NCBI GenBank assembly: GCA_951406725.2
Contig: OX597822.1
Location: 55,056,001-55,120,000 of the forward strand
Source of the DNA: Octopus vulgaris
Lineage: Eukaryota
DNA: 64,000 nucleotides
Direction: 5' to 3'
The notes beneath the pieces were generated by a model that saw only the letters and a list, made by a program, of their open reading frames with translations, was not told the DNA's origin and did not search any database. The position numbers were made by a program, and so were the translations under genes. Positions 1,600 to 48,200 of this stretch are shown in pieces; within the stretch, counting starts at the first letter, position 1; each line of letters opens with the position of its first letter.

Positions 1600-1677
1600 C
1601 TTAGAAACATGTGAGCAAAATGCTTCTGCCATTTTAAAAGAGCTTTTGTGGTTCTTCGATTTATATTTAGCATAGAC
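1600..1677 (-). CDS. Candidate internal exon of an unidentified minus-strand gene
   Basis: acccatag|VYAKYKSKNHKSSFKMAEAFCSHVSK|gtaagg; 78 nt, open frame. Confidence 0.55.
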
Positions 1678-2150: not shown

Positions 2151-2214
<64 letters not shown>

Positions 2215-2677: not shown

Positions 2678-2726
2678 ATTTTCGATCTTCTAATCAGTAT
2701 CAAATACTGATTAGAAGATTGAAAAT

Positions 2727-2770: not shown

Positions 2771-2859
2771 CGGTTTATTTAATTTATATTAAAATTTTAT
2801 GTATTAAGTCTTTTCTTGTTTGGTTTTAAAATAGTGGTTTTGTCTCGAATTATATTATA

Positions 2860-3496: not shown

Positions 3497-3594
3497 TATA
3501 CATAGCGCAGTAGTGGTGAGATATGACAGCAAAGAAAAGCATACATTCACTCTCTGCATGCAATTAGACTCGGAAAGTTCGTGAGGAACCCATT

Positions 3595-3870: not shown

Positions 3871-4068
3871 CACATTTATATTCTGTTATTGTTTTATATG
3901 TTTCAGCCTTGAGGTTGTGGCCATGCTGGATCATGTGTGTGTGTGTGTGTGTGTGTGTGTCTATCTGTCTGTCTGTCTGTATGTATATATGTATATGTAT
4001 GTGTGTGAACAATAATATTTTCAACAGATGTGTTGCAAATGTATCTGATTGTTCTCAAGCTTCAATAC

Positions 4069-4184
4069 TGTGTGTGTATGTGTGTGTGTGTATGTATGTA
4101 TGTATATGCATGTATGTATATGTATGTATGTATGTATGTATGTGTGTATGTATGTATGTGTGTGTGTATGTATGTGTGTGTGTA

Positions 4185-4215
<31 letters not shown>

Positions 4216-4298
4216 ATGTATGTATGTATGTATGTATGTATGTATGTATGTATGTATGTATGTATGTATGTATGTATGTATGTATGTGAGTGTATGTT
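4069..4298. repeat. (GT)n/(ATGT)n microsatellite (second copy at about 16138-16360)
   Basis: Direct reading. Confidence 0.95.
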
Positions 4299-5449: not shown

Positions 5450-6165
5450 TAGCTGTGTGGTACGTAGCTTGCTTATGAACCACATGGTTCCGGGTTCAGT
5501 CCCACTGTGTGGCATCTTGGGCAAGTGTCTTCTACTATAGCCTCAGGCCGACCAAAGCCTTGTGAGTGGATTTGGTAGGCAGCAGAATCATTAGCACGCC
5601 AGGTGAAATGCTTAGCAGTATTTTGTCTGCTGTTACGTTCTGAGTTCAATTTCCGCCGAGGTCGACTTTGCCTTTCATCCTTTCGGGATCGATTAAATAA
5701 GTACCAGTTACGCACTGGTGTCGATATAATCGACTTAATCCGTTTGTCTGTCCTTGTTTGTCCTCTCTGTGTTTAGCCCCTTGTGGGTACTAAAGAAATA
5801 GGTATTTCGTCTGCCACTACATTTGAGCTCAAATTCCGCCGAGGTTGACTTTGCCTTTCATCCTTTCAGGGTCGATAAATTAAGTACCTGTTACACACTG
5901 GGGTTGATGTAATCGACTTAATCCCTTTGTCTGTCCTTGTTTGTCCCCTCTATGTTTAGCCCCTTGTGGGCAATAAAGAAATAAGAATCGTTAGCATGCC
6001 AGACAAAATACTTAGTGTCATTTCATCCATCTTCACGTTCAAATTCTGCCAAGGTCAACTTAGCCTTTCATCTCTTCAGTAAGTAACAGTTGAATATTAG
6101 AGTTGATGTAACCAACTTACCCCTCCCCTAAAACTGCTGGCAGTGCCAAAATTTCAAACCAATAA
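5450..6165 (+). mobile_element. Cluster of tRNA-derived SINEs (CORE-like head plus three tandem Deu/Nin-like units)
   Basis: Pol III A/B-box-like heads; repeated gactttgcctttcatcctttcggggtcgat body also at 2214-2425 and 7063-7285. Confidence 0.8.
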
Positions 6166-6186
6166 ATTTAAGGGTTAAAAACTTAC

Positions 6187-6237
6187 TTAGTAGGAACATA
6201 ATATCTGCTGAAGCATTCATGCCATATATCTGATTGT
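6187..6237 (-). CDS. Candidate 51-nt exon (second copy at about 18250-18300)
   Basis: Strong pyrimidine tract with ttgtag acceptor and gtaagt donor; open as QSDIWHECFSRYYVPT or NQIYGMNASADIMFLL. Confidence 0.5.
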
Positions 6238-7914
6238 CTACAAATAGAAAGAAAAAAAGAATAGAATTCACATGATTAAAAAAAAAAAAGGTTTAGCTTA
6301 ATTATTACAAGCATCACTAAGGTCTTAAAAGAAATATGTTGTTTCCTGTATGTGTAAAAATAAACCATCCTCATCTTTTAACGTCTGTCTTCTATGCTGG
6401 CATAAATCGGACAGTTTGACCAGAGCTGGCAAGCCAGAGAGCTGCACCAGGTTCCAGTCTGATTTGGCTTGGTTTCTATGACTGGATGCCCTTCCTAACG
6501 CCAACCACTTTACACTGTGTGTTAGGTGCTTTTAATGTGCCACTAGCACAAGCGCTTTTACATGGCACCAGCACAAGAGCTTTATTTCAATGGAACTGGC
6601 ACTGGACTCTTGCAGGCCAATCTTCTTTGCCAAGGGATGTAGCCTTCTGTTGATTCTGTACTCACTGTAACCTACTCAGAATAAAATTCTCAGTATAAGT
6701 GAGTGGACTGTAAATAACGCTGACTACAGAGCAGGGTATACTATAAACCCAACAAACAAAGCTGGGTGAACTGTAAACCTAATACAGCGTTGGGCGGATT
6801 GTAAACCTAAGAGAAAAATTCTCTCTGTTCATGGATTTACATAGTGAATACCTATTTTCATTTTATTTCTCCTACCTTTCTAGGACATAACAAACGACAA
6901 TAACTATCACTTATGAAGACCTTTTCATCCACTCTTACATATGTTTAACCAATCTCTCTCCAATGACCAAATACTCAGCCTATGGAATTCTCACTCGACA
7001 CTATGTTCCAGTAGCCGGGATATATTCTAGAGAACAGCTGTCAGAGACTATCTAAACCTTTTAGAGCTGGCAGAAACGTTAGCACACCGGGCGAAATGCC
7101 TAGCCGTATTTCGTCTGCCGCTACGTTCTGAGTTCAAATTCCGCCGAGGTTGACTTTGCCTTTCATCCTTTCGGGGTCGATAAATTAAGTACCAGTTCAC
7201 TGGGGTCGATGTAATCGACTTAATCCGTTTGTCTGTCCTTGTTTGTCTCCTCTGTGTTTAGCCCCTTGTGGGTAGTAAAGAAATATATTATATAGCTAAA
7301 GTAAACGTCTTTGTCAAGTCTTACCTAACTGTTTGCTTCTCTTTTCTGCCTCAATATATATATATTAATGCTTGTTTTTATGTTCAGTTATAATAAACAA
7401 TTTTACATTAATCTGATGAGTTGCTCTATACTTTTGAAGAGTTCAAACTTATTATTCTTACACAAGAATGTTGTTGACAGAGATTTGAAGTTTCAGCCAA
7501 AATTTCAAAGCCACTCTACTCTTTTACTTGTTTCAGTCATTTGACTGTGGCCATGCTGTAGCACCACTTTTAGTCGAGCAAATCAACCCCAGGACTTATT
7601 CTTTGTAAGCCTAGTACTTATTCTATCGGTCTCTCTTGCCGAACCGCTAAGTTATGGGGACGCAAACACACCAGCATTGGTTGTCAAGAGATGCTGGGGG
7701 AACAAACACAGAGACACAAACATATACACATACATATATATGATGGGCTTCTTTCAGTTTCCATCTACCAAATCCACTCACAAGGCTTTGGTCAGCCTGA
7801 GGCTATAGCAGAAGACACTTGCCCAAGGTGCCACACAGTGGGACTGAACACAGAACCATGTGGTCCATAAGCAAGCTACTTACCACATAGCCACACCTTG
7901 TCAACAATATTCTT

Positions 7915-7953
<39 letters not shown>

Positions 7954-8219
7954 ATTCACACATGGCATATGCCCAAACGCAAACCTGGAAGTATATATAA
8001 TACTACTACCGGGGAGTACAGGGCAAATCTGAAGGTGCCCACCCCCACCCATCACCACTTGACAACTGGTATTGGTGTTTAAATTCCTGTGATCTAGCAA
8101 TTCAGCAAGTACTAGGATTTAAAAAAACATAAGTCCTGGGGGCGATTTGTTCTACGAAAACTCTTCGAGGCAGCACTCTTGTATAGCAGCAGTCAAATGA
8201 CAGAAACAAGTATGAATGA

Positions 8220-8505
8220 AGTCGTTGCCAGTGCTGCTGGACTGGCTCCTGTGCAGGTGGCACATAAAAAGCACCATTTGAGCATGGCCGTTGCCAGTAC
8301 CGCCGACTGGCCCTCGTGCTGGTGGCACATGAAAGCACCCACTACACTCTCGAGGTGGTTGGCGTTAGGAAGGGCATCCAGCTGTAGAAACTCTGCCAGA
8401 TCAGATTAGAGTCTGGTGCAGCCATCTGGTTCGCCAGACTTCAGTCAAAATCATCCAACCCATGCTAGCATGGAAAGCAGACGTTAAACAATGATGATAA
8501 TGATG
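8220..8505 (+). mobile_element. RTE 3'-tail fragment; others at about 6370-6640, 31790-32105, 34840-35330, 53000-53357, 60580-60990
   Basis: ggttggcgttaggaagggcatcc...acgttaaac(gat)n, matching the 3' UTR of the LINE at 42765-44305. Confidence 0.8.
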
Positions 8506-10059
8506 ATATATATATATATCTAGAGAGAGAGAGAGAGGAGAGACAGACAGACAGAGACAGAGAGAGAGACATTTTAAAAAAGGGTGAGGAGTAGAAATCC
8601 AAGCTGAAATAAACACACACACCCTCAAATTGTATTCATCCAGTGTTATTTTGAAAAGACTTGTTGAACTTTTAGAAATCATTCATAAATCTGCATTGCT
8701 AACATAAGTGTACATATGTGTGTATTTATATGTGTGTGTGTGTAATTCGTTCTTATCATACTCCACCATCTCTCATCACTTTACATAAACTCATCAAACT
8801 CTCCAATTCTTCCACAGTTAAGAAGCCTCTTTAGGTCCTTTACTCTTGAAAGGAGTCATGGAATTACAAAACACACACACAATACATTCCGTAAAATGAT
8901 TGGAGTTAGGAAGAGTATGAAGCCATTGAAACCATGTGAATATAGACATTAGAACAAGACACAACCTTCCAAATCATCTAATCCTGTCACACTGTGATTA
9001 ATATGTAGAATACCCTTAGTAATAGGTCTGGGGCTAAACTAACGATTTCTGTGTATGTGTATACATAATGTGGATATTTTCTGTTTGGGTGCACCTGTGG
9101 AAATTATAAAGTTTAGTGGAAATTTAAAAATTTGGTGTATTGATTTAATTTTCCACACTGAATATCAGGAGATGGCTCATTTTTTCCCCAGAAAATTTTT
9201 TTAAAAAGTTCAGTCAGAAAATGGGATTGGAAGCTGTTATTTTGTATGTTGACAGCACATGTTGTCAACAGTAAACAAATGAAATATTGGAGGAATTCTA
9301 CTTTACACATGCCATATAACCCCTCATAACTTTTTTTATTTTTTGGAATTAAAAAAAAAATTTTTGTGAATTAGTATTCTACACATGGGAATTCATGCGA
9401 TTATGCAAAAAAAATTTGTGCATGATTTAAGGCCTATTTAGCTGTTATTTTTAGCACATCTTATACCACATGTTTCAAGCATTTAATAAGCAACAAAAAG
9501 AACATGTGGTGAACAGTTTGGCTTGTTACTAAGGAACAGGCACCTATATGACAATGGCTTTCGATTGGCTAAAATTACCCAAAATTTGCAAACTTTAAAA
9601 GCTATTAACTCTTTCTCTATTGATTTATGGTCAAAATGAATTTTATATCAATGATTACTCTAGAAAACTACATCAATTTTTGCTTCTTAGTCAATTAGAC
9701 TTAGAGCCATTCACGTCATTTCTGTGTCCATCTATTTCTCTACACCACACGATTGAAAACTTTCATTTAGTTGTTATTTCTACATTTTCTATCTCTGAAC
9801 TTTCTTGCATAGATTACTTCATTGAACTAGATTCTACATATTGATTCTATGCATCATCATCGACCAGTAAATAAAATATATTCTTATGTAGTAAATATAT
9901 ATGTCTTGAATTTATTCTTCCGCTCTATATGAACTCTTGTAATAATATACACGCAGCCACATCAACACCTGGTACTGACTATATATAATCACTACACATG
10001 CTAGAAATAGCATCTGTATTTCTTGTGAATACATGAATTTTATTAAAACTCACAGCTCT

Positions 10060-10380
10060 TCTGGAATGTGTAATGTAAGCGTACATGTGCAACAGAGTGC
10101 AAGTGTATTGAGAAAGAAGTTAGGCATAAGAGGTATTAAATGCAGTGTGCAAGAGTGGTGATTATGCTGGCTTGGTATTATGATGCAAATGGATGCTGAC
10201 AGCTCCATAAAGAAGTGCAGATGACTCAATGTGGATGGAACCCGTGGAAGAGGCAGACCCAGGAAAACATGGGACAAAGTATTGAAAGACAACATCAGGA
10301 TGCTAAAAATTTCAGACAAGATGACTTAGGACCGAGATGCTTGACATCTTGCTGTACTCAAGAAGACCCGTTCCTCCACA
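10060..10380 (+). mobile_element. Decayed RTE ORF 3' fragment (second copy at about 22130-22450)
   Basis: Homologous to 43415-43720 (atgtgtaatgt, ggaagaggcagacccaggaa). Confidence 0.75.
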
Positions 10381-10462
10381 GCAGAAGTGTTAAGGCTGCT
10401 GCCCCTGGTGAAGAGAATTGGCCAGCAAGAGTCCTGTGCCGGTGCCACCTAAAGTGGAGTAC

Positions 10463-10531
10463 ATAGGTCTGCTGGATCAGAACTTGGAAGAACTTTTTCT
10501 AACCGAGAAATCCTCCATGCAGTCAGTTCAT
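10463..10531 (-). CDS. Candidate 69-nt exon (second copy at about 22531-22599)
   Basis: tttctgatag|ELTAWRISRLEKVLPSSDPADL; weak donor gtactc. Confidence 0.3.
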
Positions 10532-11156
10532 CTATCAGAAATAACAATGGTTAATGTAAAAAAAATAGTGCAATGGGTGTAAAAAAATGTGTGGAAAACG
10601 AATATGAAAAAAAAATGTGCGCTGACGACCCTGGGGGGTGGGGAGGGGACTTTCGGAAAATTCACAAGATCCAATTTTTCCGTCATAACTTCCGGTAAAA
10701 TGAATATATATTGATTTATTTTTACGGAATCCCATGTTTTTGGTTATGGAGGATCCATTACTGAAAAAATTTTTTCGTGTCTTGTCCTTACCTGCGAAAT
10801 GCAGAGTAGCCAAAACAGGGACAACTGAAGAAGGGGAATATTCCTTGTGTTGTATGTCTTGTACTCTGGTTTTTTGTTGTTTGAAAAAAAGTCCGTTTCC
10901 ATGTTTTTGTTTTTATGTTTTCCGTTCTCATTGTGTTCAACGTTTTTTTGGTGTCCTGTACCCATATATGCATATGTTTATATATTATTTGGTTATATAT
11001 ATATATAACCCTCCCTGCAGTAATACGACAAAGTAATTCATGTGAAATTAATTTTTTTTTTTTTTAAGCTTTCCTTTTTAAACTTTTTTTTCCCCGAAAT
11101 ATGTAGCAAAATACGAAGATACGATTCTGAAAAAAAATTGTTTGTAAAATTTCAAT

Positions 11157-11329
11157 GGTACTTGTCAATTGTCGTGGTCCCGGTTTTGCACACGCGAATT
11201 CGCGCGCGCGTCAGACGTAGGTACTCGATACTCGAGATCCTACGAGGTGACTTGCGCATGCGCAGTGCAGAATTCGCGCGTGCGCGTTAAACCCCCCCTA
11301 AAAAAAAAAGGTGTTGGATTTCACTAATA

Positions 11330-11366
<37 letters not shown>

Positions 11367-13715
11367 ACATTTTCAATTTTACACAAAAAAATTACATAGT
11401 CGCTTTCCTCGCGGATTTACAGAGAAATGAATTAATTACTATTTTACAGAATAAAATTAATGAATTAATTATATAAATTAAATAATTCTTGAAAATTAAT
11501 TAATATTAATAATATTTTTTGAACAAAGTAAATAATTTATAAAACTTGGTTAATAATTTTTTTTTTACACAAACGCGAACGTATATAATTTGTGAAACTT
11601 TTTTTTTTTTACAGACGTATATAATTTGGTAAACTTAATGAATTAATTTCTTCTCATCATCATCATCGTTTAACGTCCGTTCTCCATGCCAGCATGGGTT
11701 GGACGGTTCGACCGGGGATCTGGGAAGCCAGAAGGCTGCACCAGACTCCAGTCTTATCTGGCAATGTTTCTACAGCTGGATGCCCTTCCTAACGCCAACC
11801 ACTCCGAGAGTGTAGTGGGTGCTTTTTACATGCCACCCGCACAGGTGCCAGGCGAGGCTGGCAACGGCCACGGTCGGATTGGTGCCAGTCGAGGCGGCTC
11901 TGGCATCGGCCACGATTCGGATAGTGCTTTTTACGTACCACCAGTCCAGGGGTCCTGGCATTTGCCGGGTGCCACACTTGCCCCAACATGTCTTCGCAAG
12001 CAAAGGGGGTTGGCATGGGTGCCTGTCGTGGGATGAGGTTCGATATCAACTTCGCTTGCCTCAACAGGTCTTTGTGTATAAATGTATAAATTTTTCGCAC
12101 TAAATTCTTTCCGTAGAATTTATAAAAAAACGCGCAAAATTATTCCGTAGACTTTATCAAATTAAAAAACGCAAAATTAATATATTTTTTGAAATTGCAA
12201 ATTATTTAGAATATAAAACAAATTAAGTTAAATTTTAAAAATAAATGTCATATACTTATACTCTGTAAGGTGCTGTGTTCACACTTCAATTTACTATTTT
12301 CTAGAAATGTTGCTTTTCTAATTGAAACAATTTTTCTCAATCTCCATTTAAAAGTCCATAATGCCTCTTGAGCCATATCAAAATGAACAACTTTGAATTA
12401 CCCGGTGGTGGTGGTGTGAGGTTCTAATTTTTTTTCTGATCTCTCTTTGCCCCCCCTAGATGGAGGTGTGGTGGGGAGACAGATGAAAGATGTTTCATTC
12501 TCTACTATATATGTATATATATATCTATATCTATATATATATATATATATATTTCTTAAACCTACACGATATAGTCTATAAATTTGGGATGTTTTTGAAA
12601 GATAATATATTTTGTCATCAGAATATATATACTTTCTCACACTACAATTAAGATATATTTATTTTAAATCGTTCATCTTTTCCCGCGACAACAAAAATTG
12701 GGCGCGAAAATTTTTCTAAATATTAGCTGAATGAACAACTGAGATAAAGAGGGGGCAAAGAGAGATCAGAAAAAAAATTAGAACCTCACCACCACCACCA
12801 CCACCGGGTAATTCAAAGTTGTTCATTTTGATATGGCTCAAGAGGCATTATGGACTTTTAAATGGAGATTGAGAAAAATTGTTTCAATTAGAAAAGCAAC
12901 ATTTCTAGAAAATAGTAAATTGAAGTGTGAACACAGCACCTTACAGAGTATAAGTATATGACATTTATTTTTAAAATTTAACTTAATTTGTTTTATATTC
13001 TAAATAATTTGCAATTTCAAAAAATATATTAATTTTGCGTTTTTTAATTTGATAAAGTCTACGGAATAATTTTGCGCGTTTTTTTTATAAATTCTACGGA
13101 AAGAATTTAGTGCGAAAAATTTATACATTTATACACAAAGACCTGTTGAGGCAAGCGAAGTTGATATCGAACCTCATCCCACGACAGGCACCCATGCCAA
13201 CCCCCTTTGCTTGCGAAGACATGTTGGGGCAAGTGTGGCACCCGGCAAATGCCAGGACCCCTGGACTGGTGGTACGTAAAAAGCACTATCCGAATCGTGG
13301 CCGATGCCAGAGCCGCCTCGACTGGCACCAATCCGACCGTGGCCGTTGCCAGCCTCGCCTGGCACCTGTGCGGGTGGCATGTAAAAAGCACCCACTACAC
13401 TCTCGGAGTGGTTGGCGTTAGGAAGGGCATCCAGCTGTAGAAACATTGCCAGATAAGACTGGAGTCTGGTGCAGCCTTCTGGCTTCCCAGATCCCCGGTC
13501 GAACCGTCCAACCCATGCTGGCATGGAGAACGGACGTTAAACGATGATGATGATGAGAAGAAATTAATTCATTAAGTTTACCAAATTATATACGTCTGTA
13601 AAAAAAAAAAAAGTTTCACAAATTATATACGTTCGCGTTTGTGTAAAAAAAATTATTAACCAAGTTTTATAAATTATTTACTTTGTTCAAAAAATATTAT
13701 TAATATTAATTAATT
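11157..13715. mobile_element. Same foldback element, truncated at the gap
   Basis: Identical left terminus after ATTTCAAT; right arm ends at the N run. Confidence 0.88.
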
Positions 13716-13815: not shown

Positions 13816-14216
13816 TAAATATTGATATCTTACAGTTTTATCATTTTGTTTTTGTTACATGAGAGTTTTTTTCCACCATAAATCAACTGTAATTTCAATG
13901 TGAATTTCTTACTATCTCCTTAGTTATTTCATAAAGAAATACTACCTTGTTGAGGAATGGGTAAGGATTGGCAACAAGAAAGGGATCTGGGTGTAGAAAA
14001 TCTGCCTCAGTAAACTCCATCTGACCCATGCAAACAAAGAAGAGTGGATGTTAAAACGATGAAGATAATATTCAATTACAAATGTTTAAACTAATTTTGC
14101 TAACAATTTTAGAATTATAGCATTTCTTGAAAATAAATAAATATTTTTGTAAGGTGATGAACTGGCGGAATCGTTAGCACACCAGACAAAATGCTTAGTG
14201 ACATTTTATCCATAGG

Positions 14217-14280
<64 letters not shown>

Positions 14281-16253
14281 GGCAGCGAGCAGGCAGAATC
14301 GTTAGCACGCTGGGCGAAATGCTAAGAGGTATTTTGTCTGCCGTTACATTCTGAGTTCAAACTCCACCAAAGTTGACTTTGCCTTTCATCCTTTTGGGGT
14401 CGATTAAATAAGTACCAGTTACACACTGGGGTCAATGTAATCGACTTAATCCCTTTGTCTGTCCTTGTTTGTCCCCTCTATGTTTAGCCCCCTGAAGAAA
14501 TATATATATATGTGTATATATATATATAATAAATATTAGGGAATGAATCCAAAATTACAGGAAAAAATCAGATTTAGGGTTAAATCCAATTTTATAGTAA
14601 AATATTATATAATATAATTCGAGACAAAACCACTATTTTAAAACCAAACAAGAAAAGACTTAATCAATACATAAAATTTTAATATAAATTAAATAAACCG
14701 CCACTACAAATGTTTCATGTCTGCTACCGACAATCTTCAGGTGGATTTTCGATCTTCTAATCAGTATCAAATACTGATTAGAAGATTGAAAATCCACCTG
14801 AAGATTGTCATTTAGCAGACATGAAACATTTGTAGTGGCGGTTTATTTAATTTATATTAAAATTTTATGTATTAAGTCTTTTCTTGTTTGGTTTTAAAAT
14901 AGTGGTTTTGTCTCGAATTATATTATACTAGCAGTATCGCCCGGCGTTGCTCGGGTTTGTAAGGGAAATAACTATATAAGCATTTTTAGAGAGTTATAGC
15001 CAAAAAATAGCAAAAAATGCATTAAAAATGGAAAAAATATGATGGTAAATTTTTTTTTAAATCGTTGACTCATCGTAGACATTTTTAGAGAGTTACTTCC
15101 CTTATATAATAGCGAAAAAATGCATTAAAATGGAAAAAAAACGATGGTAAATTTTTTTTTTAAATCGTAGACTCATGTAGACGCTTTCTTAGCCATTTCT
15201 GTTTTGGTGTCTTCAAGCCATGAAGTCGTTGTTCTAAAAGAACACTGGTCTCCTTGACAACGCATTACGACGTTGATTTCCTTACACTCCCTTCCCCACA
15301 GGTGCAGGTGTGAGCGTGGACGCCAACTCCGCCGCCATCGACACACGAAAAATTATGCATTAAAATGGAATAAAAAATTATGTTAAATTATTTTTAAAAT
15401 CGTAGACTCATCGTAGACGCGCGCTAATATTCAGACGGGCTCGATATGAATCACGGCTATAAGCTACCCGAATTTGGTTAAACTGTACCGCAAAATGTGG
15501 GAGTAGTTAGGAATCTAAATCGAAGGGGACAGACACTCACACAACTACAGTTTTATATATATAGATATACATAGCGCAGTAGTGGTGAGATATGACAGCA
15601 AAGAAAAGCATACATTCACTCTCTGCATGCAATTAGACTCGGAAAGTTCGTGAGGAACCCATTGACCCAATTTGCTGACTTTTCCGATAGCACACAGGTG
15701 TCAATGAATGGTTGAATGACCAAATCCAAGCTTCTCTGCTAGTTCCTCAACAGTTACGATGATATTTTGTTCCACCAGGGTTTTCAGGATGTCCTTGTCG
15801 AGTTCTACAGATCTTTCAGGATGAGGCTCGTCTTCTAGGCTGTAGTTTATGGCTCGGGATTTCTGGAACCACCACTGACACTGCCTTACGCTTATTGTCC
15901 AATCCCCATATACTGTATTAATATTTCTTGTACTTTGCACACATTTATATTCTGTTATTGTTTTATATGTTTCAGCCTTGAGGTTGTGGCCATGCTGGAT
16001 CATGTGTGTGTGTGTGTGTGTGTGTGTGTCTATCTGTCTGTCTGTCTGTATGTATATATGTATATGTATGTGTGTGAACAATAATATTTTCAACAGATGT
16101 GTTGCAAATGTATCTGATTGTTCTCAAGCTTCAATACTGTGTGTGTATGTGTGTGTGTGTATGTATGTATGTATATGCATGTATGTATATGTATGTATGT
16201 ATGTATGTATGTGTGTATGTATGTATGTGTGTGTGTATGTATGTGTGTGTGTA

Positions 16254-16284
<31 letters not shown>

Positions 16285-19200
16285 ATGTATGTATGTATGT
16301 ATGTATGTATGTATGTATGTATGTATGTATGTATGTATGTATGTATGTATGAGTGTATGTTTACTTTATTACTAATTACTCTCTTCCAAGAACATTTTCA
16401 CTCACTCTTAGCTCTTAGCTTCCCATACATTTTACTCATGTATCTATCAGCGTCATAGACAGAATACTTTCACTTTAGTCTTCCTCAAATCACTCTGTCG
16501 CTATTTACTTTCATTTTATTCGTTGCCCACTGTGTGTGTGCGTTTGCGTGTGGTGTAAACCAGACTAAGAAAAGCATTTGACACACACACCAGAATCTGA
16601 GTTTTCTGTAAATTTTGCTTAATTGGAGTTTAAATTTTAAAAACTGGACCTGGCATGACGCGATGCATTGTACTCTTAAAAATGGTAGGTAAATTGTAAT
16701 TGAAGAAATCCTATATTGTAGATTTCTATAACTCCCAAAGGGAGGTAGATAAAATCTGCCTTTTATAATAAGAGATATACACATATATATATATATTTCT
16801 ATATATATGTATGCATCTGTATCTATGTTTGTTTTTGACTCCCCATCACTACTTGACAACCAGCATTGGTATGGTTACAACCCCATAACTTAGCAGTTCA
16901 GCAGAAGAGACCGAAATAAGCAGTGGGGTCATTCCATTTGACTAAAAATTCAAAGTAACGCTCCAGCATGGCCACAGTTTAATGACTGAAACAAGTAGCA
17001 GGTAAAAGATACAAAATAAAAAAGGAAGTTTATTTTTTGCATGTGCATTCTTATAACATGCACATTTTCATATATGCATTTTTGTGCAGATTATATTCAC
17101 AAAAGTGGAACGGTGAATCATTCTCTCATCTTTTTTGCATCCAAATTCCATGCTGGCATAGATTGAACAAGTTCTTTGAAGCAGTGCTTTCAGACCTGAT
17201 ACCCTTTGTTTCTAAGCCCTTTTAGTTGCCTTTTACAACATGTGGGGACATGGGTGTACTTTTTCTAAAACTGAGATATACATAGTTTAGAGAAGAATTT
17301 GTAAAATTTTTAAAAGTTAAAGCATTAAGTGCAACAATCTTGTATGCCATACTAATGTCATGGTACATGGTAAAGTATATTGAATATTTTTGCACAAGCT
17401 TTAGTGCACATACAAGAACCATAATGAAAGCTACCAAGTAATTGCTTTGGACTGTAAAGTTTGGGATCCTCCAGCAACTTCTGATTTAACAAGAAAAATA
17501 ACAGACACTTGTTAGCTGTGTGGTACGTAGCTTGCTTATGAACCACATGGTTCCGGGTTCAGTCCCACTGTGTGGCATCTTGGGCAAGTGTCTTCTACTA
17601 TAGCCTCAGGCCGACCAAAGCCTTGTGAGTGGATTTGGTAGGCAGCAGAATCATTAGCACGCCAGGTGAAATGCTTAGCAGTATTTTGTCTGCTGTTACG
17701 TTCTGAGTTCAATTTCCGCCGAGGTCGACTTTGCCTTTCATCCTTTCGGGATCGATTAAATAAGTACCAGTTACGCACTGGTGTCGATATAATCGACTTA
17801 ATCCGTTTGTCTGTCCTTGTTTGTCCTCTCTGTGTTTAGCCCCTTGTGGGTACTAAAGAAATAGGTATTTCGTCTGCCACTACATTTGAGCTCAAATTCC
17901 GCCGAGGTTGACTTTGCCTTTCATCCTTTCAGGGTCGATAAATTAAGTACCTGTTACACACTGGGGTTGATGTAATCGACTTAATCCCTTTGTCTGTCCT
18001 TGTTTGTCCCCTCTATGTTTAGCCCCTTGTGGGCAATAAAGAAATAAGAATCGTTAGCATGCCAGACAAAATACTTAGTGTCATTTCATCCATCTTCACG
18101 TTCAAATTCTGCCAAGGTCAACTTAGCCTTTCATCTCTTCAGTAAGTAACAGTTGAATATTAGAGTTGATGTAACCAACTTACCCCTCCCCTAAAACTGC
18201 TGGCAGTGCCAAAATTTCAAACCAATAAATTTAAGGGTTAAAAACTTACTTAGTAGGAACATAATATCTGCTGAAGCATTCATGCCATATATCTGATTGT
18301 CTACAAATAGAAAGAAAAAAAGAATAGAATTCACATGATTAAAAAAAAAAAAAGGTTTAGCTTAATTATTACAAGCATCACTAAGGTCTTAAAAGAAATA
18401 TGTTGTTTCCTGTATGTGTAAAAATAAACCATCCTCATCTTTTAACGTCTGTCTTCTATGCTGGCATAAATCGGACAGTTTGACCAGAGCTGGCAAGCCA
18501 GAGAGCTGCACCAGGTTCCAGTCTGATTTGGCTTGGTTTCTATGACTGGATGCCCTTCCTAACGCCAACCACTTTACACTGTGTGTTAGGTGCTTTTAAT
18601 GTGCCACTAGCACAAGCGCTTTTACATGGCACCAGCACAAGAGCTTTATTTCAATGGAACTGGCACTGGACTCTTGCAGGCCAATCTTCTTTGCCAAGGG
18701 ATGTAGCCTTCTGTTGATTCTGTACTCACTGTAACCTACTCAGAATAAAATTCTCAGTATAAGTGAGTGGACTGTAAATAACGCTGACTACAGAGCAGGG
18801 TATACTATAAACCCAACAAACAAAGCTGGGTGAACTGTAAACCTAATACAGCGTTGGGCGGATTGTAAACCTAAGAGAAAAATTCTCTCTGTTCATGGAT
18901 TTACATAGTGAATACCTATTTTCATTTTATTTCTCCTACCTTTCTAGGACATAACAAACGACAATAACTATCACTTATGAAGACCTTTTCATCCACTCTT
19001 ACATATGTTTAACCAATCTCTCTCCAATGACCAAATACTCAGCCTATGGAATTCTCACTCGACACTATGTTCCAGTAGCCGGGATATATTCTAGAGAACA
19101 GCTGTCAGAGACTATCTAAACCTTTTAGAGCTGGCAGAAACGTTAGCACACCGGGCGAAATGCCTAGCCGTATTTCGTCTGCCGCTACGTTCTGAGTTCA

Positions 19201-19978
19201 AATTCCGCCGAGGTTGACTTTGCCTTTCATCCTTTCGGGGTCGATAAATTAAGTACCAGTTCACTGGGGTCGATGTAATCGACTTAATCCGTTTGTCTGT
19301 CCTTGTTTGTCTCCTCTGTGTTTAGCCCCTTGTGGGTAGTAAAGAAATATATTATATAGCTAAAGTAAACGTCTTTGTCAAGTCTTACCTAACTGTTTGC
19401 TTCTCTTTTCTGCCTCAATATATATATATTAATGCTTGTTTTTATGTTCAGTTATAATAAACAATTTTACATTAATCTGATGAGTTGCTCTATACTTTTG
19501 AAGAGTTCAAACTTATTATTCTTACACAAGAATGTTGTTGACAGAGATTTGAAGTTTCAGCCAAAATTTCAAAGCCACTCTACTCTTTTACTTGTTTCAG
19601 TCATTTGACTGTGGCCATGCTGTAGCACCACTTTTAGTCGAGCAAATCAACCCCAGGACTTATTCTTTGTAAGCCTAGTACTTATTCTATCGGTCTCTCT
19701 TGCCGAACCGCTAAGTTATGGGGACGCAAACACACCAGCATTGGTTGTCAAGAGATGCTGGGGGAACAAACACAGAGACACAAACATATACACATACATA
19801 TATATGATGGGCTTCTTTCAGTTTCCATCTACCAAATCCACTCACAAGGCTTTGGTCAGCCTGAGGCTATAGCAGAAGACACTTGCCCAAGGTGCCACAC
19901 AGTGGGACTGAACACAGAACCATGTGGTCCATAAGCAAGCTACTTACCACATAGCCACACCTTGTCAACAATATTCTT

Positions 19979-20018
<40 letters not shown>

Positions 20019-22656
20019 CTATTCACACATGGCATATGCCCAAACGCAAACCTGGAAGTATATATAATACTACTACCGGGGAGTACAGGGCAAATCTGAA
20101 GGTGCCCACCCCCACCCATCACCACTTGACAACTGGTATTGGTGTTTAAATTCCTGTGATCTAGCAATTCAGCAAGTACTAGGATTTAAAAAAACATAAG
20201 TCCTGGGGGCGATTTGTTCTACGAAAACTCTTCGAGGCAGCACTCTTGTATAGCAGCAGTCAAATGACAGAAACAAGTATGAATGAAGTCGTTGCCAGTG
20301 CTGCTGGACTGGCTCCTGTGCAGGTGGCACATAAAAAGCACCATTTGAGCATGGCCGTTGCCAGTACCGCCGACTGGCCCTCGTGCTGGTGGCACATGAA
20401 AGCACCCACTACACTCTCGAGGTGGTTGGCGTTAGGAAGGGCATCCAGCTGTAGAAACTCTGCCAGATCAGATTAGAGTCTGGTGCAGCCATCTGGTTCG
20501 CCAGACTTCAGTCAAAATCATCCAACCCATGCTAGCATGGAAAGCAGACGTTAAACAATGATGATAATGATGATATATATATATATCTAGAGAGAGAGAG
20601 AGAGGAGAGACAGACAGACAGAGACAGAGAGAGAGACATTTTAAAAAAGGGTGAGGAGTAGAAATCCAAGCTGAAATAAACACACACACCCTCAAATTGT
20701 ATTCATCCAGTGTTATTTTGAAAAGACTTGTTGAACTTTTAGAAATCATTCATAAATCTGCATTGCTAACATAAGTGTACATATGTGTGTATTTATATGT
20801 GTGTGTGTGTAATTCGTTCTTATCATACTCCACCATCTCTCATCACTTTACATAAACTCATCAAACTCTCCAATTCTTCCACAGTTAAGAAGCCTCTTTA
20901 GGTCCTTTACTCTTGAAAGGAGTCATGGAATTACAAAACACACACACAATACATTCCGTAAAATGATTGGAGTTAGGAAGAGTATGAAGCCATTGAAACC
21001 ATGTGAATATAGACATTAGAACAAGACACAACCTTCCAAATCATCTAATCCTGTCACACTGTGATTAATATGTAGAATACCCTTAGTAATAGGTCTGGGG
21101 CTAAACTAACGATTTCTGTGTATGTGTATACATAATGTGGATATTTTCTGTTTGGGTGCACCTGTGGAAATTATAAAGTTTAGTGGAAATTTAAAAAATT
21201 TGGTGTATTGATTTAATTTTCCACACTGAATATCAGGAGATGGCTCATTTTTTCCCCAGAAAATTTTTTTAAAAAGTTCAGTCAGAAAATGGGATTGGAA
21301 GCTGTTATTTTGTATGTTGACAGCACATGTTGTCAACAGTAAACAAATGAAATATTGGAGGAATTCTACTTTACACATGCCATATAACCCCTCATAACTT
21401 TTTTTATTTTTTGGAATTAAAAAAAAAATTTTTGTGAATTAGTATTCTACACATGGGAATTCATGCGATTATGCAAAAAAAATTTGTGCATGATTTAAGG
21501 CCTATTTAGCTGTTATTTTTAGCACATCTTATACCACATGTTTCAAGCATTTAATAAGCAACAAAAAGAACATGTGGTGAACAGTTTGGCTTGTTACTAA
21601 GGAACAGGCACCTATATGACAATGGCTTTCGATTGGCTAAAATTACCCAAAATTTGCAAACTTTAAAAGCTATTAACTCTTTCTCTATTGATTTATGGTC
21701 AAAATGAATTTTATATCAATGATTACTCTAGAAAACTACATCAATTTTTGCTTCTTAGTCAATTAGACTTAGAGCCATTCACGTCATTTCTGTGTCCATC
21801 TATTTCTCTACACCACACGATTGAAAACTTTCATTTAGTTGTTATTTCTACATTTTCTATCTCTGAACTTTCTTGCATAGATTACTTCATTGAACTAGAT
21901 TCTACATATTGATTCTATGCATCATCATCGACCAGTAAATAAAATATATTCTTATGTAGTAAATATATATGTCTTGAATTTATTCTTCCGCTCTATATGA
22001 ACTCTTGTAATAATATACACGCAGCCACATCAACACCTGGTACTGACTATATATAATCACTACACATGCTAGAAATAGCATCTGTATTTCTTGTGAATAC
22101 ATGAATTTTATTAAAACTCACAGCTCTTCTGGAATGTGTAATGTAAGCGTACATGTGCAACAGAGTGCAAGTGTATTGAGAAAGAAGTTAGGCATAAGAG
22201 GTATTAAATGCAGTGTGCAAGAGTGGTGATTATGCTGGCTTGGTATTATGATGCAAATGGATGCTGACAGCTCCATAAAGAAGTGCAGATGACTCAATGT
22301 GGATGGAACCCGTGGAAGAGGCAGACCCAGGAAAACATGGGACAAAGTATTGAAAGACAACATCAGGATGCTAAAAATTTCAGACAAGATGACTTAGGAC
22401 CGAGATGCTTGACATCTTGCTGTACTCAAGAAGACCCGTTCCTCCACAGCAGAAGTGTTAAGGCTGCTGCCCCTGGTGAAGAGAATTGGCCAGCAAGAGT
22501 CCTGTGCCGGTGCCACCTAAAGTGGAGTACATAGGTCTGCTGGATCAGAACTTGGAAGAACTTTTTCTAACCGAGAAATCCTCCATGCAGTCAGTTCATC
22601 TATCAGAAATAACAATGGTTAATGTAAAAAAAATAGTGCAATGGGTGTAAAAAAAT

Positions 22657-23403
22657 GTGTGGAAAACGAATATGAAAAAAAATGTGCGCTGACGACCCTG
22701 GGGGGTGGGGAGGGGACTTTCGGAAAATTCACAAGATCCAATTTTTCCGTCATAACTTCCGGTAAAATGAATATATATTGATTTATTTTTACGGAATCCC
22801 ATGTTTTTGGTTATGGAGGATCCATTACTGAAAAAATTTTTTCGTGTCTTGTCCTTACCTGCGAAATGCAGAGTAGCCAAAACAGGGACAACTGAAGAAG
22901 GGGAATATTCCTTGTGTTGTATGTCTTGTACTCTGGTTTTTTGTTGTTTGAAAAAAAGTCCGTTTCCATGTTTTTGTTTTTATGTTTTCCGTTCTCATTG
23001 TGTTCAACGTTTTTTTGGTGTCCTGTACCCATATATGCATATGTTTATATATTATTTGGTTATATATATATATAACCCTCCCTGCAGTAATACGACAAAG
23101 TAATTCATGTGAAATTAATTTTTTTTTTTTTTAAGCTTTCCTTTTTAAACTTTTTTTTCCCCGAAATATGTAGCAAAATACGAAGATACGATTCTGAAAA
23201 AAAATTGTTTGTAAAATTTCAATGGTACTTGTCAATTGTCGTGGTCCCGGTTTTGCACACGCGAATTCGCGCGCGCGCGCGCGCGTCAGACGTAGGTACT
23301 CGATACTCGAGATCCTACGAGGTGACTTGCGCATGCGCAGTGCAGAATTCGCGCGTGCGCGTTAAACCCCCCTAAAAAAAAAAGGTGTTGGATTTCACTA
23401 ATA

Positions 23404-23440
<37 letters not shown>

Positions 23441-25908
23441 ACATTTTCAATTTTACACAAAAAAATTACATAGTCGCTTTCCTCGCGGATTTACAGAGAA
23501 ATGAATTAATTACTATTTTACAGAATAAAATTAATGAATTAATTATATAAATTAAATAATTCTTGAAAATTAATTAATATTAATAATATTTTTTGAACAA
23601 AGTAAATAATTTATAAAACTTGGTTAATAATTTTTTTTTACACAAACGCGAACGTATATAATTTGTGAAACTTTTTTTTTTTTACAGACGTATATAATTT
23701 GGTAAACTTAATGAATTAATTTCTTCTCATCATCATCATCGTTTAACGTCCGTTCTCCATGCCAGCATGGGTTGGACGGTTCGACCGGGGATCTGGGAAG
23801 CCAGAAGGCTGCACCAGACTCCAGTCTTATCTGGCAATGTTTCTACAGCTGGATGCCCTTCCTAACGCCAACCACTCCGAGAGTGTAGTGGGTGCTTTTT
23901 ACATGCCACCCGCACAGGTGCCAGGCGAGGCTGGCAACGGCCACGGTCGGATTGGTGCCAGTCGAGCGGCTCTGGCATCGGCCACGATTCGGATAGTGCT
24001 TTTTACGTACCACCAGTCCAGGGGTCCTGGCATTTGCCGGGTGCCACACTTGCCCCAACATGTCTTCGCAAGCAAGGGGGTTGGCATGGGTGCCTGTCGT
24101 GGGATGAGGTTCGATATCAACTTCGCTTGCCTCAACAGGTCTTTGTGTATAAATGTATAAATTTTTCGCACTAAATTCTTTCCGTAGAATTTATAAAAAA
24201 ACGCGCAAAATTATTCCGTAGACTTTATCAAATTAAAAAACGCAAAATTAATATATTTTTTGAAATTGCAAATTATTTAGAATATAAAACAAATTAAGTT
24301 AAATTTTAAAAATAAATGTCATATACTTATACTCTGTAAGGTGCTGTGTTCACACTTCAATTTACTATTTTCTAGAAATGTTGCTTTTCTAATTGAAACA
24401 ATTTTTCTCAATCTCCATTTAAAAGTCCATAATGCCTCTTGAGCCATATCAAAATGAACAACTTTGAATTACCCGGTGGTGGTGGTGTGAGGTTCTAATT
24501 TTTTTTCTGATCTCTCTTTGCCCCCCCTAGATGGAGGTGTGGTGGGGAGACAGATGAAAGATGTTTCATTCTCTACTATATATGTATATATATATCTATA
24601 TCTATATATATATATATATATATTTCTTAAACCTACACGATATAGTCTATAAATTTGGGATGTTTTTGAAAGATAATATATTTTGTCATCAGAATATATA
24701 TACTTTCTCACACTACAATTAAGATATATTTATTTTAAATCGTTCATCTTTTCCCGCGACAACAAAAATTGGGCGCGAAAATTTTTCTAAATATTAGCTG
24801 AATGAACAACTGAGATAAAGAGGGGGCAAAGAGAGATCAGAAAAAAAATTAGAACCTCACACCACCACCACCACCGGGTAATTCAAAGTTGTTCATTTTG
24901 ATATGGCTCAAGAGGCATTATGGACTTTTAAATGGAGATTGAGAAAAATTGTTTCAATTAGAAAAGCAACATTTCTAGAAAATAGTAAATTGAAGTGTGA
25001 ACACAGCACCTTACAGAGTATAAGTATATGACATTTATTTTTAAAATTTAACTTAATTTGTTTTATATTCTAAATAATTTGCAATTTCAAAAAATATATT
25101 AATTTTGCGTTTTTTAATTTGATAAAGTCTACGGAATAATTTTGCGCGTTTTTTTATAAATTCTACGGAAAGAATTTAGTGCGAAAAATTTATACATTTA
25201 TACACAAAGACCTGTTGAGGCAAGCGAAGTTGATATCGAACCTCATCCCACGACAGGCACCCATGCCAACCCCCTTTGCTTGCGAAGACATGTTGGGGCA
25301 AGTGTGGCACCCGGCAAATGCCAGGACCCCTGGACTGGTGGTACGTAAAAGCACTATCCGAATCGTGGCCGATGCCAGAGCCGCCTCGACTGGCACCAAT
25401 CCGACCGTGGCCGTTGCCAGCCTCGCCTGGCACCTGTGCGGGTGGCATGTAAAAAGCACCCACTACACTCTCGGAGTGGTTGGCGTTAGGAAGGGCATCC
25501 AGCTGTAGAAACATTGCCAGATAAGACTGGAGTCTGGTGCAGCCTTCTGGCTTCCCAGATCCCCGGTCGAACCGTCCAACCCATGCTGGCATGGAGAACG
25601 GACGTTAAACGATGATGATGATGAGAAGAAATTAATTCATTAAGTTTACCAAATTATATACGTCTGTAAAAAAAAAAAGTTTCACAAATTATATACGTTC
25701 GCGTTTGTGTAAAAAAAATTATTAACCAAGTTTTATAAATTATTTACTTTGTTCAAAAAATATTATTAATATTAATTAATTTTCAAGAATTATTTAATTT
25801 ATATAATTAATTCATTAATTTTATTCTGTAAAATAGTAATTAATTCATTTCTCTGTAAATCCGCGAGGAAAGCGACTATGTAATTTTTTTGTGTAAAATT
25901 GAAAATGT

Positions 25909-25945
<37 letters not shown>

Positions 25946-26447
25946 TATTAGTGAAATCCAACACCTTTTTTTTGGGGGGGGTTTAACGCGCACGCGCGAA
26001 TTCTGCACTGCGCATGCGCAAGTCACCTCGTAGGATCTCGAGTATCGAGTACCTACGTCTGACGCGCGCGCGCGCGCGAATTCGCGTGTGCAAAACCGGG
26101 ACCACGACAATTGACAAGTACCATTTCAATTTTTCAACAAGGAAAAAGATAAAGTATACCCTCAGGCCTTCAAGCAGGTTATGCACATGCTAGAAATAAC
26201 AGCCAAATCTCACAAAACTGCGATAACATAATAAAATTTTGAAAATGCGATTTTTGAAAATTGTTTTTCAGAATCGGATCCTCCATAACCAAAAACGAGG
26301 GATTCTGTAAAAAAATAAATCACTATATATCCATTTTACCCGAATTTATGACGGAAAAATCGGATCTTGTGAATTTTCCGAAAGTCCCGTTTCTACCCCC
26401 CAGGGTCATCAGCGCGCATTTTTTTAAATATTCGTTTTCCACACACT
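22657..26447. mobile_element. Older MITE with diverged ~170-bp inverted ends, hosting the foldback element
   Basis: 22657-22825 is a diverged reverse complement of about 26277-26447 (ggatcctccataaccaaaaac...ttttccacac). Confidence 0.7.
23224..26122. mobile_element. Non-autonomous foldback DNA transposon with ~1.3-kb TIRs and 8-bp TSD (Merlin- or MULE-like)
   Basis: Termini GGTACTTGTC...GACAAGTACC; ATTTCAAT at 23216-23223 and 26123-26130; near-identical arms 23224-~24525 and ~24822-26122. Confidence 0.88.
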
Positions 26448-27650: not shown

Positions 27651-28466
27651 TTACTTTTCCTTGTTCAGGTCAAAGTTTCCGTCCAGCTTTTCGTTAATCA
27701 CCGTCGGTGGAGTACAGAAACCACTTCTGCTAATGGAAGGGTTTACTTCAATGATAGTTGGGGGAGTACAGAACTGACTCTTGTCAGAACCTTCATCGTT
27801 TGTATCAACATCAGAAATATTATCGCTGCCATCTGAATCCGAAACATCTAGATCCATAACGGTTGGTGGTTCACAGAACATACTTTTGTTACGCGACACG
27901 ACCGATCCCACCATATTGCCATTAGGTAAAGGACTCGGGAAAATATCTTTTACACGTCCATTCGATTTTCGCGCTGTTTTTGATTTTCTCGCAAGGCGGG
28001 TAGAGGTGCCTTTTGTAGACTTTGAACATTTTCTCTTGGTTACACTCCTTGTTTGATATTTCGGGAATTTTTTGTTAGAGACTACCACTAACTTGCTAGG
28101 TTTGCGGCGATTTCTCTTGTTTTTCGTTGTGCGAGACGAGGGTTTATGTGTAGTTTTCCGTTGTGATGGAATATTTCTTCGATCGCTCTCTGTAAACAAC
28201 TCATTTAAATCGACAACTTCACAATCACTGAATGTACGGTCAAATCGACTGAATATCGACTCGAATTTTTTCCGTTGTATATTCCCGTTCGCCTTCAGGC
28301 ATTTCGCCAAGTCCATAGTAACTGAACTCGGTAATCGTGGTTGTAAAAAGTACGATTGATCGTTGCTAGTGAATGTTTCAATGTTAGGGTAGACCGATGA
28401 TGATTTTGTAAAGCGGTGTAAGATGAGTTCAGTGATTGCTGAACTGCGTAGTATCGCATTGTTCAT
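27651..28466 (-). CDS. Putative Scm3/HJURP-family CENP-A chaperone (271 aa; alternative start M51 at 28316)
   Basis: Longest ORF in the window, non-repetitive and CpG-rich. DLAKCLKANGNIQRKKFESIFSRFDRTFSDCEVVDLNEL matches the Scm3-domain pattern by eye. It is followed by a basic K/R/S region, an acidic patch and three FCxPPT repeats. Confidence 0.72.
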   Translation of the reverse strand: MNNAILRSSAITELILHRFTKSSSVYPNIETFTSNDQSYFLQPRLPSSVTMDLAKCLKANGNIQRKKFESIFSRFDRTFSDCEVVDLNELFTESDRRNIPSQRKTTHKPSSRTTKNKRNRRKPSKLVVVSNKKFPKYQTRSVTKRKCSKSTKGTSTRLARKSKTARKSNGRVKDIFPSPLPNGNMVGSVVSRNKSMFCEPPTVMDLDVSDSDGSDNISDVDTNDEGSDKSQFCTPPTIIEVNPSISRSGFCTPPTVINEKLDGNFDLNKEK

Positions 28467-45290: not shown

Positions 45291-48200
45291 GTATATATAG
45301 GCGCAGGAGTGACTGTGTGGTAAGTAGCTTGCTTACCAACCACATGGTTCTGGGTTCAGACCCACAGCATGGCACCTTGGGCAAGTGTCTTCTATAGCCT
45401 CGGGCCGACCAAAGTCTTGTGAGTGGATTTGGTAGATGGAAACTGTCGTGTATATATATATATATATGTTTGTGTGTCTGTGTTGCCCCCCTCCCCCAAC
45501 ATCGCTTGACAACCGATGCTGGTGTGTTTGCGTCCCTGTAAGTTAGCGGTTTGGGAAAAGAGACCGATGGTATAAGTACTAGGCTTGCAAAGAATAAGTC
45601 CTGGGGTCGATTTGCTCAACTAAGGGCAGTGCTCCAGCATGGCCACAATCAAATGACTGAAACAAGTAAAAGAGTAAAGAGTATGTATATATATGTGTGT
45701 GTGCGTATATATATTTGTGTATGTGTCTGTCTCTCACTATCACTTGAAAATCCATCTTTCTTGGCAAAAGTGACCGTTTGAACAAATACTGGGGTTGAAT
45801 TGTTTGAAGTTCTTGAAGGCAGTGCCCCTGTATGGCAGCTGTCCAATGACTGAAACAAACAAAAGAAAGATAAAAAGTGACAATTGGTGTGCACCCTTTT
45901 CAATCCTCCTAGTCCCTCCAACTCTATCATGAGAAACACTGCTGGGGAGGAAAAAAAACTTCACGATGCAGTATGTTAGTATTATTTGATGTAATTATAC
46001 TTCCATTGAGTTATGTTGATATTAAGTCTCTTTGATCCTGAATATTAGCCAACATATTGAAACTTTTCTGTGTGTGTCTTTACAGGCAATTCGACACTCC
46101 TTGGACATTGCCAAATATTGAACAATATGTTTAGAAATGAAGATATATTTAAATGTTTTGTCCTATATTTAATGCTAAGCTCTAGGTTAGCCTTGATCAA
46201 GCAGAGTTCTGATCAACTATGATCAAAAGCATTCGAGTTGTAGCCATCCCATCTTCTTCTCCAGATATGCATTTAAGGCAATCTAATGTCCATTTCTAAA
46301 ACCGTTGGATTTAGGAAAAATCTGGTTGCTATTTCTAGTAGGTCGAGCAACCATGAAGAAACACTCGTTATCTTATATTTTTCTCCTAATGTATATATTT
46401 AAGTATAAATAAGGATGTATATTGAAACTTTACTCTGTTTGTCTTTACAGGCAATTTGAAGAAGAATTAAGAACATACCAGGGTAATGACCCCTTAGATA
46501 TTTGGTTCAGGTTTGTATATTTTTTTGTTATTCTCCTTCTCTTCCAACTAGAGTTACCAATGTCTCCCCTACACCTGTTCCCTGACATACTTTAAGCATC
46601 TTGTCACTTGACATTAACCCTTTCGTTACCAAACCGCCCAAAGCCGCCCGAAAAAAATTTTGGTTTATGAGACCAAACCGCCCGAATTTACCTATTCATA
46701 TTTAAATGAGAATATCAGAGCAAATCTCTTCAGTACATTCGTGAAAACACGTATTATACTTCGTAAACAGTTCAACTACAGTTTTGTACAATAATCGAAG
46801 TGTAATTTTAATTCCGTGAATTTTGGGAGATTTTTTTCCGAAATTTGTTCCTATTGTGTTTTCAAAATTTGTAATTCTGACAAAAAATGGATACGAATTT
46901 CATTATATCAAGCAGCGAGTCAGAATTCGAAGGATTTTCTACTGAAGACCTTCATAAATCTAACTCTATGACTGAAAAAAAAAAGCATGTGGTATTTGAT
47001 AATGAATCTGATGTTTCATTTTCCGAAAGTGAAAACAGTGAATCTGAGATCTCCGATAGCGATAAAGAAAACGAATTGGCACCTGAATGGAGTGAAAATT
47101 TAAAAACTGTTTCTTTCGGTGATTTTTCTGAAGAAACTGGACCAAGCCACAGACTTTCCCAGAAGAGTAAAGCCTTAGACTATTTCTTTTTACTTTTTCG
47201 AATGAGCCTATTTGAAATCATTATGGCAGAAACAAACCGTTACGCTAAACGTAAACAAAGCGAAAGAAAGGATAGTTTGTGGTTTCCCACAACCTTAAAT
47301 GAAATTAAGACTATTTTGCCATAAATATTATTATGGTTATCAGAAAGTTACCCAGAATAACAAATTCTATCGTAAAATTTTGTTGTATACCCAATTGAAT
47401 ATTAGCTAATAACCCATTTTCTATAGCGATGTTTGAACAAAATTTTAATAATTTTATATTTTGTGGAATTTACCTGTATCTACCTGCAATTAGAATCACT
47501 TTGTGACAAAAATTATAGTATAGAATTGGTTGAGAATATTTCATTAAATTATCTTCCAAAAATCAGATTAATATATTGATAAATAAAAAAGTTATAGTTG
47601 TTTAATGAAACCAGACTAAATTTATGATTACGTTAGAAATTAATTGAAACACATAAGAGGTGTAATTTGGTCAGAAATATAGTAACGAAAGGGTTAAGCC
47701 ACTTCACTCATTACTGCTCCCTTACTTTAGGTGAGGTGTATTGTCTTGCAAAGTTACTTGGCTAACCCCACTAGTGCCAGTACTATGTAAAATGCACCCA
47801 CTACACTGTCTAAAATTGTTGGTACTAGAAGGGTATCTGGCTTGGTGCAGTCCTCCAGGTTGCCAACCCCTATTGTACCATCCAAACCCATACCAGCATG
47901 TAAAATGGACATTGAATTATGATGGATATTCTTAGTTCAATATCTTCTCTCTGTATACATATTTTTGTATGTTATTATATAAATTTAATTTGTAATCCCT
48001 GACATTAATCTTTTCCTCTGTCCCTATCACATTCTCTCTCTCTCACAGCAGTCAACTGTTCCTCTCATCATGCTCTACTCTCACACCACCTTGCTCTAAA
48101 TCATCTCTCTCTCTCTCTTCCTTTCAGTTGCAGGGAGCACCATTTGACACTCTTTATTCTTGCAAGTTACAAGGCAAACACTTTTGCCATAAAAAAGAAA

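Follow-up and report, generated by a model that had tools for sequence, protein, structure and literature searches.

A gene on the minus strand of the analysed 64,000-nucleotide stretch of the Octopus vulgaris genome, hereafter the window, very probably encodes the octopus Scm3/HJURP, a CENP-A chaperone. The preliminary description of this DNA had proposed a divergent CENP-A deposition chaperone, and the proposal is supported by Scm3/HJURP sequence matches, by a predicted interface and by conservation among octopods. The gene likely extends to cephalopods the known HJURP family, which was recently shown to be pan-metazoan; it fills a gap and does not represent a new system.

The 271-aa minus-strand ORF spans window positions 27651-28466, and both the ORF and its residues 52-93 were found as first quoted. 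It had been described as unannotated-looking, which needs correction. The 318-aa NCBI protein P0002 of O. vulgaris is identical to it along the whole length of the ORF, and the gene is annotated in NCBI, though only as hypothetical or uncharacterized; the same cluster holds two O. sinensis isoforms. Nor is the ORF the whole protein. The HJURP candidate is a four-exon, single-copy gene, and the 271-aa ORF is exon 1 reading into intron 1, with its stop inside the GT donor of that intron. Exon 1, when taken as 27655-28466, and exons 2 and 3 (Table 1) together rebuild P0002 up to its last exon, and a short exon 4 (L047) is located outside the window, approximately 4.5 kb past its left end. Twelve exon-1 boundaries were tried, of which only the end at 27655, where GT comes next, rebuilds P0002. 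Contigs from four of four runs, belonging to four studies whose RNA origin is guessed and not recorded, cover exon 1, depart from the genome at 27660 and carry extra sequence. This departure fits splicing, while splicing itself rests on the annotation and the GT-AG reconstruction. One run, X7, showed five differences within the ORF (window 28138-28394). Four of them change a residue, all outside aa 51-92, and one inside is silent; five differences are too few for a selection test.

To find orthologs, we used three word-based searches (proteins of 145-655 aa) and one two-sequence profile search of 1.84 billion representative proteins. Three octopod clusters were found: P0002, P0003 (68% identical) and P0010 from Argonauta hians. 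Relatives outside octopods, i.e. in squid, cuttlefish or non-cephalopods, were not found at E up to 0.001 among the 1.84 billion proteins with the two-sequence profile, and the word-based searches likewise returned octopods only within their size range. The ESM Atlas contained no usable relative. Three of the five profile-search matches (P0008, P0009 and P0011) were unrelated repeat proteins, false matches driven by repeats, and were dropped. The scm3-like domain is identical to P0003 at 34 of 42 positions and to Argonauta at 18 of 42. Conservation had been expected to be limited to this domain. The domain is indeed kept in the other octopods, but it is not the sole conserved part, since identity to Argonauta is also seen in the basic region (12/43 and 9/42), in the repeats (18/34) and in the C-terminal block at aa 272-314 (15/43). 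P0003 ends at the same point as exon 1, which may also reflect an unspliced form.

The ORF has one match in the whole 2.8-Gb genome and is thus single-copy, which counts against a multicopy transposon or viral sequence. A transposon- or virus-derived or non-coding ORF would suit a repeat-rich window and a gene in which one long exon holds most of the coding length. Given the single copy, the GT-AG exons that rebuild the annotated protein, the orthologs that are collinear including the downstream exons, and no transposon Pfam match on the ORF, we regard such an origin as extremely improbable.

Translation probably starts at Met51, resulting in a protein of 268 aa. The context of Met51 is strong, with A at -3 and G at +4, and the Argonauta ortholog begins just ahead of the domain, which occupies its aa 9-51. 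Upstream of Met51, in the region of aa 1-50, 14 of 43 positions are identical to P0003 and 1 of 43 to Argonauta, and residues 7-29 of P0003 match a different reading frame of this region. Two upstream ATGs (28466 and 28459) within the contig-covered region count against the Met51 start.

Table 1. Features of the HJURP candidate gene in the window.
Feature	Window positions	Strand	Basis
scm3-like domain (aa 51-92): amphipathic predicted helix of ~28 residues ending Arg74-Phe75, then acidic/short-hydrophobic patch	28191..28316	-	Pfam Scm3; PDB top match human HJURP; AF2 helix; complex prediction
Annotated aa 1-50, likely 5' leader and not protein	28317..28466	-	Frame use in P0003, low identity, Met51 context
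Basic tract aa 101-175, K+R 37%	27942..28166	-	Composition; conserved aa 136-150 block
Three short repeats S-x-[FL]-C-[DET]-P-[PL]-[TS], starting at aa 195, 230 and 248	27702..27884	-	Three copies in each of three octopod proteins
Coding exon 1, likely start Met51 to intron-1 GT donor	27655..28316	-	Only the 27655 boundary rebuilds P0002; contigs leave the genome at 27660
Exon 2, 51 nt, AG/GT, beginning of conserved C-terminal block	18250..18300	-	Exon reconstruction
Exon 3, 78 nt, remainder of C-terminal block	1600..1677	-	Exon reconstruction; no Pfam family
Second copy of exon 2, inside 12-kb duplicate	6187..6237	-	99.7% identical copies, 100-N gap between

Profile homology to Scm3 was assessed with HMMER. 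Among 24,736 Pfam models, Scm3 (PF10384) came first for the window domain (residues 51-102; E 0.0033, 17.5 bits, profile positions 13-43). In P0003 and Argonauta P0010 it was the only Pfam family to match, with E 0.00082 and E 0.014, respectively. The anticipated Scm3 match is weak, with octopod scores of 13.7-19.5 bits that are all below the curated Pfam cut-off of 24.3 bits, yet it is the best one in three of three octopod proteins. For a family named in advance, a match of this kind exceeds chance, though it is below the Pfam cut-off. For comparison, the text of Hollis et al. 2026 (PMC13322267) accepts HHpred E values generally <1 for scm3 templates. A profile of the three octopod sequences (A3) ranked human HJURP first of 177,635 PDB sequences with E 0.11. 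Human HJURP in PDB chain 3r45_C matches over 39 residues without gaps, its residues 18-56 pairing with A3 positions 2-40, and this reproduces the gapless HJURP alignment given in the preliminary description. HJURP was not found in the PDB by a single sequence or by the two-sequence profile; adding the Argonauta sequence lifted it to rank 1.

The Scm3/HJURP family is characterised by an N-terminal helix of approximately 25 residues whose hydrophobics recur at regular spacing. Within the octopus domain, the helix hydrophobics are located at aa 53, 57, 63, 68, 71, 72 and 75, and the acidic/short-hydrophobic patch is present at aa 81-90. The KY position reads Arg-Phe in Octopus and P0003 and Arg-Tyr in Argonauta; these are conservative variants and not the canonical pair. 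The claimed match to the fungal Scm3 block needs correction at KY, which reads RF. The aromatic position of human Phe29 is polar in all three octopods. By eye, the domain aligns ungapped with the Biomphalaria entry of Data S1 of Hollis et al., with approximately 10 of 32 residues identical.

The same helix could belong to an octopod-specific basic nuclear protein and be scm3-like by chance. The sub-threshold scores, the restriction of relatives to octopods, the empty ESM Atlas and the way in which the domain stretch was initially picked out of the whole window are compatible with this. We nevertheless consider it quite unlikely, because the Argonauta domain, merely 39% identical, matches Scm3 by itself and carries the Tyr of the family, because its addition brought human HJURP to the top of the PDB ranking, and because unrelated partners scored 0.00 in the complex predictions described below.

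A candidate for the histone partner is encoded in the same genome. On contig C17 (minus strand) we identified a two-exon, single-copy H3 variant of 141 aa (L044:2423-2605 and L041:886-1128), which we take to be CENP-A by the hallmarks of this histone. It has its own N-tail, and 48 of 80 positions of its histone fold are identical to H3; the differences include Met for H3 Gln68, Trp for Phe84 and Ser for Thr107. Loop L1 does not exceed that of H3 in length, and Ser stands at H3 position 105, where Glu is otherwise conserved. Its best 60 PDB matches are all H3. The numbering offset from this candidate to human CENP-A, used below, is assumed. The candidate agrees with the text of PMC12210499, according to which mollusc CENP-A lacks Ser68.

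The contacts of the human complex are given in the text of PMC10070699 (citing Hu 2011): CENP-A Glu96 with HJURP Arg32, Lys39 and Tyr40, Glu107 with Arg28, and His104 and Asp108 with Ser25. In three of three octopods, Arg32 and Lys39 are replaced by Lys and Arg, Ser25 by Asn and Arg28 by an aliphatic residue. In the CENP-A candidate, Glu96 and Asp108 are unchanged, and positions 104 and 107 are Ser. Since Arg28 is aliphatic and Glu107 is Ser, the Glu107-Arg28 bridge is lost on both partners. This is a single pair, and aliphatic residues occupy the Arg28 position also in fish and frog (text of PMC13322267), so the loss does not show co-evolution. Separately, L034 (contig C20) holds a divergent variant of H2B whose N-terminus is extended; the text of PMC12210499 mentions one H2B variant for O. 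vulgaris.

We then considered predicted structures. The AF2 monomer contains a helix of 28 residues at aa 53-80, the first 20 of which have pLDDT 84-88; no strand formed after the helix in this model, and Foldseek with the 52-aa domain model returned 0 matches. The ESMFold2 trimer of the domain, the fold of the CENP-A candidate from this genome and H4 scored 0.76, 0.75 and 0.76, compared with 0.00 for the best of three controls. The trimer runs share at least 57% of contacts and have a partner pLDDT of at least 63, and the domain alignment was not used. In calibration, the same mark was passed by 51 of 78 solved complexes and 2 of 108 mismatched pairs from microbes; for eukaryotes, the figures were 71 of 105 solved and 2 of 126 unrelated pairs. 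In the confident contacts, the domain helix is predicted to run antiparallel along CENP-A alpha2, with Ile71, Phe72 and Phe75 also touching H4 alpha3. HJURP-like docking of a helix and a strand had been anticipated, and it was obtained with confidence for the helix interface only: residues 80-92, the strand region, are absent from the confident contacts. Since similar complexes are solved, the pass indicates likeness rather than binding, and it may stem from such structures having been memorised by the predictor.

Replacing the CENP-A chain with an unrelated protein abolished the trimer score; this control is not H3, and near relatives of a genuine partner pass the method as well. The helix might therefore bind histone-fold dimers in general, H3/H4 or one with a germline H3 variant, in which case the protein would be a chaperone without a centromeric role or an HJURP paralog put to another use. 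The strand that would read CENP-A L1 is not confidently docked, and the candidate histone itself is H3-like in its fold and in its L1 length. Against this, the sequence matches specifically Scm3 and HJURP, and no second scm3-like gene was seen in a genome-wide PF10384 search, though this search gave two weak off-target matches, missed the gene's own locus and is too insensitive for copy counting. In addition, the text of PMC13322267 gives one strong match per genome for the majority of deuterostomes. Taken together, we judge a general histone chaperone unlikely and favor the CENP-A chaperone.

The remainder of the protein had been described as disordered and basic. It is basic at aa 101-175, a tract that is a candidate DNA-binding or nuclear-import region by its composition and that includes a short block at aa 136-150 with 8 of 15 residues identical to Argonauta. 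Residues 176-271, in contrast, are acidic and Ser/Thr-rich, and the conserved C-terminal block, for which no Pfam family was found, comes after them. The composition of the remainder fits a largely disordered, polar sequence. The full-length AF2 model has a mean pLDDT of 36 and falls below 50 nearly everywhere, the domain included, and hence gives no evidence of disorder. We compared the three short repeats with the PP2A-B56 docking motif; the motif fits Argonauta and not Octopus, and the assignment was dropped.

In the mechanism that we propose, the N-terminal helix would bind the CENP-A/H4 dimer, and the chaperone would deliver this dimer to centromeres. Helix 53-80 is predicted to lie antiparallel on CENP-A alpha2, where Ile71, Phe72 and Phe75 would pack on H4 alpha3 and on the beginning of alpha2. 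By analogy with the family, the acidic/hydrophobic strand at 81-92 would cap the L1 strand of CENP-A and block premature DNA binding, the chaperone would be recruited in early G1 by Mis18/M18BP1 or CENP-C, and the basic tract would help hand the histones over to DNA. More speculatively, the three short repeats and the C-terminal block could be recruitment sites. Dimer shielding, recruitment via Mis18 or CENP-C and centromere deposition are family roles according to the text of PMC13322267.

With regard to recruitment partners, a weak SANTA match in an M18BP1-like exon (L056, contig C7) had E 0.3, over the cut-off. Two exons on contig C24 (L058 and L059) presumably resemble Mis18, as judged from motifs; L057 and L060 we take to resemble a Yippee protein and cereblon, respectively. 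A Mis18-independent model lost its support after the Mis18- and M18BP1-like exons turned up. The CENP-C cupin was not found in the genome by a search that is insensitive, so this is no evidence of loss.

Octopods might possess a miniaturised HJURP of approximately 270 aa with rewired recognition (the Glu107-Arg28 bridge lost on both sides, KY changed to RF, an L1 of H3 length), which would obtain its specificity mainly from alpha2. It would carry a cephalopod-specific module for centromere targeting, composed of the three repeats and a helical block at the C-terminus, with no relation to vertebrate R1/R2 or the CAL1 tail. We put this forward as a tentative and rather doubtful model.

The preliminary description placed the gene in a lineage where orthologs are hard to detect, which is outdated. 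The text of Hollis et al. (PMC13322267) reports HJURP across most animal lineages, including four molluscs (Biomphalaria, Crassostrea, Mizuhopecten and Pomacea), and lists Capitella and Lingula as other lophotrochozoan candidates. A cephalopod HJURP was not found in the text and text supplements of that paper, searched by names and three accessions; its figures or supplementary PDF may show one. None was found either in a wider literature search with limited coverage of subscription journals. Like the lophotrochozoan HJURPs described in that text, the octopus protein has an N-terminal scm3 domain in the same ungapped register (by eye), with no homology expected elsewhere, and is annotated as uncharacterized. 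Unlike them, it has RF for KY, a polar residue at the Phe29 position, and octopod-specific repeats and a C-terminal block. At 268 aa, if Met51 is the start, it falls below the whole range of the 20 metazoan entries in Table S1 of PMC13322267 (288-1823 aa; Biomphalaria 929).

The likeness to human HJURP (3R45) comprises the ungapped 39-residue alignment, the predicted antiparallel helix on CENP-A alpha2, the H4 contacts at the helix end and the basic pair facing CENP-A Glu96, which is kept. The differences are Ile for Arg28, Ser for CENP-A Glu107 and His104, no Pfam match to the middle and C-terminal domains of HJURP, and a three-stranded sheet that is not confidently predicted in octopus. According to the text of PMC13322267, the near-universal KY at the helix end is relaxed in some Diptera, and CAL1 with DF is still counted as a member. 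Drosophila CAL1 and C. elegans NEFR-1 resemble the octopus protein in having a lineage-restricted conserved C-terminal block (that of CAL1 binds CENP-C) and, for CAL1, the relaxed KY. Unlike in these two systems, genes resembling Mis18 and M18BP1 seem to have been kept in octopus, and no sequence link of its C-terminus to theirs was found, as far as Pfam shows. No Pfam family fits the octopus domain better than that of fungal and choanoflagellate Scm3 (PF10384), but the domain remains below the curated cut-off and has an eroded D-x-G-x-L motif; erosion of this motif is reported for metazoans in the text of PMC13322267.

A gene carried as hypothetical in NCBI thereby receives a name, as a centromere gene that is probably essential, and a matched set of HJURP, CENP-A and H4 becomes available for octopod centromere study. 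The overall picture is unchanged, as HJURP was already shown in most animal lineages, molluscs included (text of PMC13322267). The comparative interest lies in a very short ortholog, an unusually H3-like CENP-A L1 and two conserved lineage-specific motifs.

Finally, we inspected the surroundings of the gene in the window. Exon 2 is present twice because two 12-kb tandem segments (1750-13715 and 13816-25781), 99.7% identical, flank a 100-N gap. The 12-kb duplication is likely an assembly artefact, i.e. a false duplication, and a genuine duplication of exon 2 was rejected on account of the gap between the copies. Inverted repeats of 1.0-1.3 kb with 98-99% identity lie in the introns (window 23205-26140 and 11138-13715) and carry a high-copy interspersed element. 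A Bub1/Mad3-family checkpoint gene is located at window 39875-60200 on the plus strand, head-to-head with the HJURP candidate and approximately 11.4 kb from it. We assign it from exons that we take to carry a KEN box (near 39875), Mad3_BUB1_I (46449, 49229 and 50500) and a GLEBS-like motif (near 60117). Within a Bub1 intron, at window 46887-47324 on the plus strand, there is a weak DDE_Tnp_1_7 (piggyBac-like) match with E 0.008.
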